Of a DNA stretch of 64,000 nt, positions 6,832-8,204 are shown piece after piece (position 1 is the first letter of the stretch; each line of letters begins with the position of its first letter). The notes below the pieces were generated by a model. The model made no database searches and was not told the DNA's origin. It was given only the letters and a program-made list of their open reading frames with translations. The translations under genes and the position numbers were made by a program. Where the stretch lies: the NCBI GenBank assembly GCA_000165345.1, contig CM000431.1, positions 192,001 through 256,000 of the forward strand. Direction: 5' to 3'.

Positions 6832-6951
6832 GCAATCGGCCATACTACATCGAATATACCGGATCCCATCAGAACTCCGAAGTCAAGCGGTGTAAGGTTC
6901 GGTTAGTACTAGGGTGGGGGACCACCTGGGAAGACCAGAATGTCGATCGCC
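6832..6951 (+). rRNA. 5S ribosomal RNA gene, copy 1
   Basis: About 120 nt: GCAATCGGCCATACTACATCGAATATACCGGATCCCATCAGAACTCCGAAGTCAAGCGGTGTAAGGTTCGGTTAGTACTAGGGTGGGGGACCACCTGGGAAGACCAGAATGTCGATCGCC. It has the conserved 5S landmarks GGCCATAC, GTTAGTACT and CCTGGGAA. Its 5-prime GCAATCGGC pairs with the 3-prime GTCGATCGC to form helix I. A T-run (ttttt, 6955-6959) follows and fits a Pol III terminator. The ends are plus or minus 5 nt. Confidence 0.85.
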
Positions 6952-7404
6952 TCCTTTTTAAATTTTTTTTCTTACCATTTTTATAATTTTTAAAACTAAT
7001 CTATATTGTACTAAAGGTGGGTAGTTTTACTTTATAACTAATTTATCTAGATAAAAAAAGTTTTAAATTGTAATCACTCGATTATTGCTCTATTTTTAAT
7101 ATTATAGAGAATAAATAGCGGGCTTCAAGGAAAATTATTCTTACTTTTCTATAATGGCTGCATGCAAGCAATATAATTAAATTTAGTGCATTTGAAGTTT
7201 ATATTACGTGGAAAAAAAATGAATTAAAATGAATTAAAAATTATTACCGCCATTAATTTAATTAAAATTTTATTCTGAACAGAACTATAATACAAATAAA
7301 AAAAGTTATTTTGATTTATAGTAATTAACAACAATTAAAAAATAATCATTATTATATTAATCTCTAACCCTGAAAAAGGGGAAAAATCAAAAAAATTAAA
7401 AAGA

Positions 7405-7524
7405 GGCGATCGACATTCTGGTCTTCCCAGGTGGTCCCCCACCCTAGTACTAACCGAACCTTACACCGCTTGACTTCGGAGTTCTGATGGGATCCGGTAT
7501 ATTCGATGTAGTATGGCCGATTGC
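7405..7524 (-). rRNA. 5S ribosomal RNA gene, copy 2 (inverted relative to copy 1)
   Basis: The reverse complement of 7405-7524 is identical to copy 1 over the whole gene and 9 nt of 5-prime flank. An A5 run at 7399-7403 gives a T5 terminator on the minus strand. Track ORF 7364..7546 is a spurious overlap. Confidence 0.85.
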
Positions 7525-8084
7525 TGGTGGTAACTTCAAATTGCATTACTATATTAATTTTTTCATTTTTTTTTATTAATTAAATATATCAAAAATATTA
7601 ATATTAGGGATCCTAGATACTTATTATTGGTTGTTAAAAAAAAAAAATTAAAGAGTAGAGAATGATTGAAGCATGTTTGAATAACTTTTAAATCAATTTG
7701 CTGTTATTTTCAATTATTTAATCCTACTATTTATTTAAAAGTAAAAGTTGCTTTTAGTACGCTTTTTCCTTATATATAAATATTCTTACATGCAAAATTG
7801 GTTTTTAGTTTAAAATACTCCCAATGCAAACTTCCCGCCTTTTTAAAATTATTAAAATATTTTTTTCATGAATCAATTGTAAATAAAAATGGATAACGGT
7901 TTTATTTAACCCGCCACTTTATATATTTAAAATGGAATTTAATACTAAAAACTAAACAAAAATAAAACGATGAAATTGTAAATATAACTTATTGAAATAA
8001 TTCATTTTGCCAATCAAACAATAAGTTCTTTTAATTAAGATTAAATATTAGTTATTAACAAAATTAATAAAAATCTAAAAAGAA

Positions 8085-8204
8085 GGCGATCGACATTCTG
8101 GTCTTCCCAGGTGGTCCCCCACCCTAGTACTAACCGAACCTTACACCGCTTGACTTCGGAGTTCTGATGGGATCCGGTATATTCGATGTAGTATGGCCGA
8201 TTGC
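8085..8204 (-). rRNA. 5S ribosomal RNA gene, copy 3 (direct repeat of copy 2, about 680 bp period)
   Basis: The reverse complement is identical to copies 1 and 2 within the gene. The 5-prime flank diverges (accgtcagcaatcgg versus accaccagcaatcgg). An A5 run at 8078-8082 gives a T-run terminator. Track ORF 8041..8232 is a spurious overlap. Confidence 0.85.

Follow-up and report, generated by a model that had tools for sequence, protein, structure and literature searches.

The three 5S rRNA genes described here very probably constitute the chromosome-3 5S cluster of Cryptosporidium parvum, a set of functional, identical RNA polymerase III (Pol III) genes whose +/-/- arrangement is the true order of the locus and is one of four isomers interconverted by homologous recombination. 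The cluster itself is ordinary and already catalogued. In that catalogue it has three copies in CpIOWA-ATCC and CmTU1867 and two in CpBGF with 2–3x read compression, a difference that was put down to copy-number variation or assembly compression, and a second 5S cluster of three copies lies on chromosome 7 (PMC11655656). The catalogued genes and locus are the same as those analysed here, and the text of that work makes no mention of orientation or inversion. The 5S-bounded micro-inversions that we report, which appear to be recurrent, are a small new detail that was previously undescribed.

The genes were identified by an Rfam covariance model search (cmscan, run at the gathering threshold, which for RF00001 is a cutoff of 38 bits) of the window, i.e. 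the whole 64-kb stretch of DNA that was analysed and in which all positions given below are counted. A preliminary description, made from the sequence alone, had claimed three 5S genes in +/-/- order, and the scan returned exactly three RF00001 matches in this order, all of them full-length (model positions 1–120 of 120) and each scoring 102.5 bits with E = 2.6e-21. Copy 1 (6832–6951, plus strand) adjoins the left flank, copy 2 (7405–7524, minus strand) occupies the middle, convergent with copy 1 and direct with copy 3, and copy 3 (8085–8204, minus strand) adjoins the right flank and lies 335 bp upstream of a gene for a GST-like protein. The gene bodies had been described as 100% identical, and 120 of 120 nt were indeed the same in all copies; three identical 120-mers with these E-values exclude chance. 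No further 5S copy or fragment was found elsewhere in the 64-kb window, and an Rfam scan of positions 6200–8600 with permissive filters and E ≤ 1 returned nothing beyond the three 5S genes. When the 5S RNA was aligned to the covariance model, every helix (I–V, with the three-way junction) was paired, and 4 non-standard pairs were marked. The minimum free energy fold of the 5S RNA was no better than that of shuffled sequence (z = −0.85), which is usual for 5S RNA, and this measure was set aside in favour of the covariance model. In a metagenome collection, a 32-nt Cryptosporidium 5S pattern had 0 matches.

Two segments of the gene, GAACUCCGAAGUCAAGCG and UAGUACUAGGGUGGGGGACCACCUGGG, agreed almost base for base with the family consensus in the covariance model alignment, and from established knowledge of Xenopus and yeast 5S genes we take them to be the predicted box A and box C, respectively. 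Each copy would carry its own internal control region, and all three are probably normal Pol III genes. Upstream of the genes, the columns from −32 to −20 were the most conserved across 28 copies from 9 species, with T at −27 in 28 of 28 copies and T at −29, A at −28 and T at −32 in 26 of 28. These columns hold a TATA-like element at −32 to −22, a putative TFIIIB/TBP site, which is found at 6800–6810 on the plus strand in copy 1 (TGTTATGATAA), at 7546–7556 on the minus strand in copy 2 and at 8226–8236 on the minus strand in copy 3. The flank of copy 3 had been called divergent; this held for the proximal 20 nt, which bear no relation to the same stretch in copies 1 and 2, but not for the element at −37 to −20 (AAAATTGATATGGTCATG), which is common to all three copies. 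Similarly, the first 9 nt of flank had been given as identical between copies 1 and 2, and this was true of the last 7 nt (ACCACCA) but not beyond them, as a C/T mismatch occurs at −8; past this mismatch a further 10 nt are identical, so that 17 of 18 nt agree, with 80% identity over 50 nt. Each copy is followed, as had been noted, by a T5 run that begins 2–3 nt past the 3' end and is the predicted terminator: 6955–6959 on the plus strand for copy 1 (GCC tcc TTTTT), and 7398–7402 (GCC tc TTTTT) and 8077–8081 (GCC ttc TTTTT), both read on the minus strand, for copies 2 and 3. In the 9 species, 27 of the 28 copies had a run of 4 or more T shortly after the 3' end.

The convergent pair is separated by an AT-rich spacer of 453 bp (spacer A, 6952–7404), the orientation of which varies among assemblies, and the two direct copies by a spacer of 560 bp (spacer B, 7525–8084), which together with one 5S gene makes up a unit of 680 bp subject to loss or gain. 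These measurements agree with the earlier estimates of about 450 bp between copies 1 and 2 and about 680 bp between copies 2 and 3, the latter being the start-to-start distance. A repeat search of the window showed that the inverted-repeat core is identical at 120 of 120 nt and that the arms extend to 177–222 nt at 86–90%. One inverted repeat (6782–7574) is formed by copies 1 and 2 together with ~50 nt to either side of each, and its arms of 222 nt at 6782–7003 and 7353–7574 are 86% complementary. [quoted passage not shown] A direct repeat (7389–8241) is formed by copies 2 and 3 over 173 nt (7389–7561 and 8069–8241; 90% identical) with a 680-bp period.

The cluster occupies an intergenic gap of 2.3 kb, and the protein genes to its left and right are divergently transcribed, both leading away from it. 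The left gene (3603–6251, minus strand) encodes 882 aa without a Pfam match and is syntenic in C. hominis, C. canis, C. felis and C. meleagridis, and the right gene (8540–10288, plus strand) encodes a cgd3_670-type protein of 582 aa with a weak match to a GST C-terminal domain, which exactly matches C. parvum Iowa II EAK89195.1 and is also identical to the ATCC entry. The outer 5S copies point inwards, away from these flanking Pol II genes. No ORF of at least 64 aa overlaps the intergenic region, the longest (60 and 63 aa) merely overlapping the 5S genes, and a coding or recombinase explanation for the spacers was dropped on this ground. Even with a cutoff of E ≤ 1, Rfam revealed no known RNA in the spacers, and no tRNA or other Pol III neighbour was detected in the 64-kb window by ARAGORN or Rfam. 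The claim that these 5S genes are unlinked to an 18S–28S unit was borne out, as cmscan gave zero SSU, LSU or other rRNA matches in the 64 kb; the rDNA units lie on chromosomes 1, 2, 7 and 8 (PMC11655656).

Comparison with related genomes, which the preliminary description had proposed, was carried out on 9 species and showed that the oppositely oriented member is no oddity. In 9 of 9 species the cluster could be written as (+)n-spacer-(-)m, the number of copies ranging from 2 to 5, and in every case the left-most copy was on the plus strand and the right-most on the minus strand, making the outer pair convergent. The order +/-/- was found in C. parvum, C. meleagridis (two assemblies), C. felis and C. 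xiaoi, with extended and shortened versions in chipmunk genotype I (+/-/-/-/-) and C. ryanae (+/-), while C. hominis (four assemblies), C. tyzzeri and C. canis had +/+/-.

Compared to C. hominis TU502_2012, the window fell into three blocks, of which the left was collinear up to 6968, the right was collinear from 8040, and the middle was a single reverse block (6789–8207 against 5708–4300; 1437 columns, 90.8% identity). The same three-block pattern was observed for C. tyzzeri, with a reverse block of 6832–8246 against 5664–4260 at 93.7%. On the basis of these assemblies, one clean inversion of ~1.1 kb, with its breakpoints in the outer 5S copies, sets C. hominis and C. tyzzeri apart from C. 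parvum. A species difference, a local inversion and an assembly mis-join had been offered as options for the inverted member, and the internal segment carried in reverse by C. hominis and C. tyzzeri speaks for the first two. Spacer A is forward in C. parvum and reversed in C. hominis TU502 (including the Sanger assembly TU502-2004), UKH1 and UdeA01, in C. tyzzeri and in C. meleagridis UKMEL1, the last of which has spacer A alone inverted. In C. hominis and C. tyzzeri the 680-bp unit of one 5S gene and spacer B is inverted and sits on the left arm, and spacer B is 92–95% identical between species. A tree of 8 kb of flank places C. parvum and C. tyzzeri together (23 informative sites vs 9 and 8), and spacer B lies on the right in C. 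parvum, on the left in C. tyzzeri, on the left in C. hominis and on the right in C. meleagridis, which implies at least two events or lineage sorting.

It had been argued that the perfect identity of the copies implies ongoing homogenisation. Identity of the gene bodies alone is insufficient for this conclusion, but gene conversion is supported by upstream flanks that co-evolve and by substitutions that paralogues share. The upstream flanks of copies 1 and 2 were 72–96% identical within species (58% in C. canis), whereas identity of the same flanks between C. parvum, C. meleagridis and the chipmunk genotype went down to 52–78%, and species-specific substitutions were common to the paralogues in C. 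canis, C. felis, the chipmunk genotype and C. xiaoi. This co-evolution of the upstream flanks within species points to gene conversion.

The orientation of spacer A also differed within species, namely between C. hominis IbA12G3 and TU502, UKH1 and UdeA01, and between C. meleagridis TU1867 and UKMEL1. Whether these flips are natural polymorphism or artefacts, produced by template switching at the inverted repeat during multiple displacement amplification (MDA) or by an arbitrary choice of the assembler, is in our judgement an even call. Both exceptions come from MDA-amplified DNA, which is prone to inverted chimeras (CmTU1867 was made by MDA and ONT, and IbA12G3 by REPLI-g WGA and PacBio CCS), and chimeric reads abound in long-read sets from MDA, of which 486,818 PacBio and 1,394,568 ONT reads had to be split in one study (PMC11599830). 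A consensus assembly nevertheless requires a majority of reads, and chimera filtering had been applied. On the side of the assembler, the arms in C. meleagridis are ~190 nt long and nearly identical, exceeding the reads of 100–150 nt that we assumed for UKMEL1, TU502_2012 and UKH1; the isolates compared are, however, truly different, with flanks that are 99.3–99.5% identical. Natural flips are also made plausible by the co-evolution of the flanks, which shows conversion between the same inverted copies, so that crossovers between them are to be expected, and by the inversions bounded by the same repeats that clearly separate species.

A different route to the order of C. hominis and C. tyzzeri would involve no inversion: a 680-bp circle of 5S gene and spacer B would have been cut out on the right and inserted again in the left copy, or the two sides would have undergone separate duplications. 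We consider this very unlikely. Two-copy versions that resemble excision products do exist, since C. hominis TU502-2004 (Sanger) has lost one 680-bp unit just as CpBGF has, and excision with re-integration would yield +rcB+A- (rc, reverse complement), which is the order in C. hominis IbA12G3; C. tyzzeri and the C. hominis assemblies from non-amplified DNA, however, align to C. parvum as a single reverse block that includes spacer A, the mark of one inversion, for which one crossover suffices where the other route needs two. Independent duplication on each side was ruled out by the homology of spacer B between species. IbA12G3 taken alone suggested that two crossovers had re-paired the 5S genes with their 3' flanks in a three-way exchange, and this was rejected on the same single inversion in the non-amplified assemblies.

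That +/-/- is an error of the assembly path, the true C. parvum cluster being tandem or +/+/- as in C. hominis, is highly improbable. The four isomers share all 5S–flank junctions, so reads shorter than ~150–220 nt cannot distinguish them and the resolution of the repeat is error-prone; contigs built from short reads end precisely at the 5S genes, and CpBGF collapses the locus to two copies. The order in C. parvum is that given by the assemblies. Positions 2540–16288 of the window (13.7 kb) are 100% identical to chromosome 3 of the PacBio-based CpIOWA-ATCC, a contig that may be the window's own assembly, in which case the independent support comes from GCA_031892065.1 and, for spacer A only, from CpBGF. 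GCA_031892065.1 also has +/-/-, with 99.86% identity and a 9-bp indel in spacer B, and CpBGF (ONT) keeps the same +A- backbone between both flanks, reading left flank-5S(+)-spacer A forward-5S(-)-right flank with exactly one 680-bp unit cleanly missing. The recurrence of +/-/- in other C. parvum assemblies makes the mis-join that the preliminary description had allowed for unlikely in this species. Spacer B is also right-hand in two C. meleagridis assemblies and in those of C. felis, C. xiaoi and the chipmunk genotype, and a fully tandem order was found in 0 of 19 assemblies or contigs. Three 5S genes of C. parvum were reportedly cloned by Taghi-Kilani et al. (Gene, 1994), the title of which contains the words 'tandemly repeated', a wording that favours a tandem order. 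Given the second cluster on chromosome 7, that clone may be from the chromosome-7 locus and not from this one. The earlier statement that C. parvum has three clustered 5S genes, described as tandem, holds for the cluster on chromosome 3, but these are not the whole complement, and 'tandem' does not fit this locus, where copy 1 is on the plus strand and copies 2 and 3 are on the minus strand; unlike in a head-to-tail array, only copies 2 and 3 form a direct repeat.

We propose that +/-/- is one of four interconvertible isomers of (+)n-spacer A-(-)m. With + and - standing for the 5S genes, the four read +A-B-, +rcA-B-, +rcB+rcA- and +rcB+A-. Because the copies are perfect 120-bp repeats, homologous recombination would act on them, and it could do so in three ways. 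A crossover between copies in opposite orientation would invert the segment between them, as in C. hominis and C. tyzzeri, where the whole of A-5S-B is inverted; a crossover between direct copies would remove or add the 680-bp unit of 5S gene and spacer B, giving the range of 2 to 5 copies seen in the genus; and recombination without crossover would homogenise the genes together with 40–60 nt of upstream flank. As every crossover would fall inside a gene body, each 5S gene would keep its own promoter, and since every possible 3' flank opens with a T-run, the isomers should be functionally equivalent and the rearrangements presumably neutral.

Inversion at inverted repeats by general homologous recombination is well known from chromosome inversions between oppositely oriented rrn operons of bacteria and from the flip-flop isomers of plastid genomes that contain inverted repeats. 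The present locus resembles these systems in that identical rRNA genes in opposite orientation bound a segment that is seen both ways, with breakpoints in the repeats and without a recombinase gene inside. It differs from them in its scale (repeats of 120–220 bp and a segment of 0.45–1.1 kb), in its location in a nuclear eukaryotic genome, and in that the isomers were compared here between assemblies. It is also unlike a site-specific invertase switch of the phase-variation type, as there is no recombinase ORF and, to judge from the breakpoints, the genes would keep their promoters in every isomer. Three clustered 5S genes had also been attributed to Plasmodium falciparum, in agreement with the small single cluster of three Pol III-transcribed 5S genes, unlinked to 18S–5.8S–28S, that is described on chromosome 14 of that species and on chromosome 10 of P. 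berghei (PMC12235521). The Plasmodium locus is like the present one in being a small three-gene cluster unlinked to the large rDNA units, but its genes run head-to-tail and are flanked by tRNA-Pro and SRP RNA (PMC12235521), whereas here the outer copies are convergent and the flanking genes are Pol II protein genes.

As a housekeeping cluster in a reference genome, the locus has little importance of its own. It is a known trouble spot for assembly, with two or three copies depending on the assembly and short-read contigs that break there, and because the isomers share all junctions, 'structural variants' called at this locus need long-read or PCR proof. We tentatively entertain, at somewhat less than an even chance, that the cluster is a naturally isomerising module with recurrent inversion of the internal spacers, switching of the unit of 5S gene and spacer B between sides, a copy number of 2–5, and all four isomers present among related species and isolates and possibly within populations. 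Should these inversions prove real and recurrent, the cluster would provide a neutral reporter, easily assayed by long reads or PCR, of mitotic or meiotic homologous recombination between short repeats in the parasite.

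The whole window was scanned with Rfam at gathering thresholds, and RF00001 (threshold 38 bits) was the sole family matched, with exactly three matches: copy 1 at 6832–6951 on the plus strand, and copies 2 and 3 at 7405–7524 and 8085–8204 on the minus strand. Each match covered all 120 model positions at 102.5 bits, and no further 5S fragments were found elsewhere in the window. The three gene bodies were identical to one another, which bears out the preliminary description of three 100% identical 5S rRNA genes at 6832–8204 in a +/-/- arrangement; the T5 run that it placed after each gene was likewise found, 2–3 nt past the 3' end. 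Spacer A (453 bp) separates the convergent copies 1 and 2, and spacer B (560 bp) the direct copies 2 and 3 (start-to-start 680 bp). The 5' flank of copies 1 and 2, previously said to be identical for 9 nt, showed its first mismatch after 7 nt (17/18 identical; 80% over 50 nt). The flank of copy 3 was indeed divergent over its proximal ~20 nt, but not farther upstream, where a AAAATTGATATGGTCATG-type element was present as in the other copies.

The 5S RNA aligned with the consensus across all helices, and the segments equivalent to box A and box C, which we take to be the boxes of a type-1 Pol III gene, were near-identical to the consensus. When 28 5S copies, drawn from 9 Cryptosporidium species, were anchored at +1 and their upstream flanks compared, the sole strongly conserved block was T(-32)nATAT(-27)RRTAA(-22), with T-27 in 28/28 copies and T-29, A-28 and T-32 in 26/28 each; positions -19 to -3 were nearly unconstrained. 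The copy-3-type flank carried this block, though it was otherwise unrelated to the other flanks. The block may be a TATA-like TFIIIB/TBP site and is a candidate for a Pol III promoter element lying upstream of the gene; such sites are known upstream of fungal and plant 5S genes. In the window, the TATA-like element (about -37 to -20) lies at 6795–6812 (copy 1), 7544–7561 (copy 2) and 8224–8241 (copy 3). A T-run was present at the 3' end of all 5S copies of the genus set but one, the third copy of chipmunk genotype I (L002 3870–3990), which also carries 9 differences, one of them a 1-nt insertion, and is probably a pseudogene. Judged by sequence, the three genes of the window are presumably active, ordinary 5S genes. 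In C. tyzzeri (GCA_007210665.1, contig L019), an ambiguous N was noted just upstream of 5S copy 2 at ~4966–4968 ('caaNcaccatca'), possibly because reads from the two similar upstream flanks were mixed or mis-mapped.

The cluster fills a 2.3-kb gap between divergent protein genes at 3603–6251 (minus strand) and 8540–10288 (plus strand), so that both outer 5S genes face inward, each lying head-to-head with the neighbouring Pol II gene. The right neighbour (582 aa) had a weak match to a GST C-terminal domain and matched C. parvum Iowa II and IOWA-ATCC proteins exactly. No notable ORF or known RNA was found in either spacer, and no 18S, 5.8S, 28S or tRNA genes were found within the 64-kb window, consistent with the earlier view that these 5S genes lie apart from the large rDNA unit. 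Farther right, a Peptidase_C1 (papain-family, cathepsin-like) gene at 10658–12211 on the minus strand was broken into ORFs, including pieces of 107 aa and 176 aa; it is annotated as a 412-aa product in related assemblies, and introns, which are uncommon in Cryptosporidium, are therefore presumed in the window copy.

Cryptosporidium 5S genes are known to occupy chromosomes 3 and 7, with a cluster of three on each, and the copy number on chromosome 3 is 3 in CpIOWA-ATCC and C. meleagridis TU1867 (CmTU1867) and 2 in C. parvum BGF (CpBGF); the orientation of the chromosome-3 genes is nowhere mentioned (PMC11655656). Since there are two clusters, the 'tandemly repeated' C. parvum 5S clone described in 1994 (Taghi-Kilani et al.) may come from a locus other than that on chromosome 3. 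We retrieved orthologous loci from 19 assemblies or contigs using a flanking protein and its orthologues, and then mapped their 5S genes. Every assembly mapped had the form (+)n-A-(-)m, and a fully tandem order was found in none. The order +/-/- was seen in C. parvum IOWA-ATCC (start-to-start 573 and 680 bp) and GCA_031892065.1 (573 and 671 bp), two C. meleagridis assemblies (566 and 636 bp), C. felis (516 and 614 bp) and C. xiaoi (924 and 632 bp). The order +/+/- was seen in C. hominis IbA12G3, TU502_2012, the UdeA01-type GCA_002223825.1 and GCA_001593475.1 (670 and 573–575 bp), C. tyzzeri (675 and 567 bp) and C. canis (833 and 558 bp). C. ryanae had +/- (897 bp), and chipmunk genotype I (L002 2540–5672) had +/-/-/-/- (470, 860, 861 and 822 bp; period ~860 bp). 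Two genes (+/-) were also present in CpBGF (telomere-to-telomere, GCA_035232765.1; L011 4973–5665; 573 bp) and Sanger-sequenced C. hominis TU502-2004 (L014 4964–5666; 583 bp), each of which lacks exactly one 5S plus spacer B unit of ~680 bp, by either direct-repeat deletion or assembly collapse. A mis-join, one of the explanations raised for the inverted member, is not supported by this comparison: the inverted member is genuine and belongs to a genus-wide convergent architecture. Plasmodium, in contrast to the convergent outer copies of Cryptosporidium, has a single locus of three head-to-tail 5S genes (PMC12235521).

Within this architecture, the segment between the outer genes was found in different orientations. 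Aligned to C. hominis TU502_2012 (L013), the window was collinear on the left to 6968 and on the right from 8040, with a reverse-complement block between (window 6789–8207 = L013 5708–4300; 1437 columns, 90.8%). C. tyzzeri gave a like pattern (6832–8246 = 5664–4260; 93.7%). A single reverse block in each case indicates that C. parvum differs from these species by one inversion of the whole A-5S-B segment, with breakpoints in the two outer 5S copies, which are oppositely oriented, or in the initial ~17 nt of 3' flank that they share. Relative to C. parvum, C. meleagridis UKMEL1 had spacer A alone inverted (window 6789–7589 reversed), C. meleagridis TU1867 was collinear throughout, and C. hominis IbA12G3 had spacer A forward, with an inverted spacer B to the left in the cluster. 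All four conceivable isomers (+A-B-, +rcA-B-, +rcB+rcA- and +rcB+A-; rc, reverse complement) therefore turn up among the assemblies, each one inversion from two others. IbA12G3, which is monkey-derived, and TU502_2012 diverged by ~0.5–0.7% over locus positions 3000–6500, seemingly high within a species; TU502_2012 and GCA_001593475.1 showed 100% identity across these 3.5 kb.

The C. parvum order is supported by CpIOWA-ATCC (PacBio), to whose chromosome 3 window positions 2540–16288 are 100% identical, by GCA_031892065.1, and by the ONT-based CpBGF, which keeps the C. parvum backbone with one unit fewer. At 19550–20123 (~575 bp), about half of the window's bases are N, in single or short runs among C/G-rich called bases; this looks like a consensus left unresolved across repetitive sequence that is probably coding. 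The 2004 Sanger reference is described as containing such patches, and a later long-read assembly was called gapless (2022 long-read paper), so the window is probably the 2004 Sanger Iowa II reference and independent of the long-read assembly. In C. hominis, spacer A was reversed in Sanger TU502-2004 and three later assemblies, and spacer B was on the left in 4/4 three-copy assemblies. Because these assemblies agree, we consider the inversion between C. hominis and C. parvum probably real. A tree built on 8 kb of right flank placed C. parvum with C. tyzzeri (informative sites: 23, against 9 and 8), and spacer B lies on the right in parvum and meleagridis and on the left in tyzzeri and hominis. 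This distribution calls for two or more inversions, or else for an ancestral polymorphism that sorted among the lineages; under either, the rearrangement is not a one-off.

The spacer A differences within species are less certain, artefact and genuine polymorphism being about equally probable. Both discordant assemblies came from whole-genome-amplified DNA: CmTU1867 by MDA and ONT, and IbA12G3 ('CHM_' gene identifiers) by REPLI-g amplification and PacBio. Inverted chimeras are a known class among MDA chimeras. MDA yields many chimeric reads (PMC11599830). All isomers would share the same six 5S/flank junctions, and reads short of the whole repeat could not distinguish them. Short-read contigs that include the GST-like right neighbour (L007, L008, L012, L017 and L018) stopped inside, or a few hundred bp before, the 5S gene closest to it, which shows directly that short-read assemblies of this locus break at the 120-bp repeat.

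The preliminary description took perfect identity to imply ongoing homogenisation. Identity alone is not compelling, since selection on the 5S RNA is enough to account for identical gene bodies, but shared substitutions and flanks do show concerted evolution. Private substitutions were common to all paralogues within each of C. canis, C. felis, chipmunk genotype I and C. xiaoi, and C113 was present in C. meleagridis copies 1 and 2 and absent from copy 3. The non-transcribed 40–60 nt upstream of copies 1 and 2 were 72–96% identical within species (58% in C. canis), but only 52–78% between C. parvum, C. meleagridis and the chipmunk genotype, which indicates that conversion tracts reach beyond the gene; the copy-3 flank evolves like ordinary orthologous sequence. 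The same recombination, with crossover, would account for the inversions and the loss of the 680-bp unit in CpBGF and TU502-2004. Any inversion between a (+) and a (-) copy would regenerate (+)n(-)m, making the convergent layout self-maintaining. With crossovers in the gene body, every gene would keep its own promoter and end at the T-run of the spacer end that comes after it, so no functional difference between the isomers is expected.

The window thus holds an ordinary, already catalogued gene cluster whose inverted member is genuine. The inversions treated in the 2022 long-read paper were all large ones, on chromosomes 2, 4 and 5. The novelty here is modest and assembly-based: the cluster's own inverted 5S copies bound micro-inversions that separate close Cryptosporidium species and, possibly, isolates.
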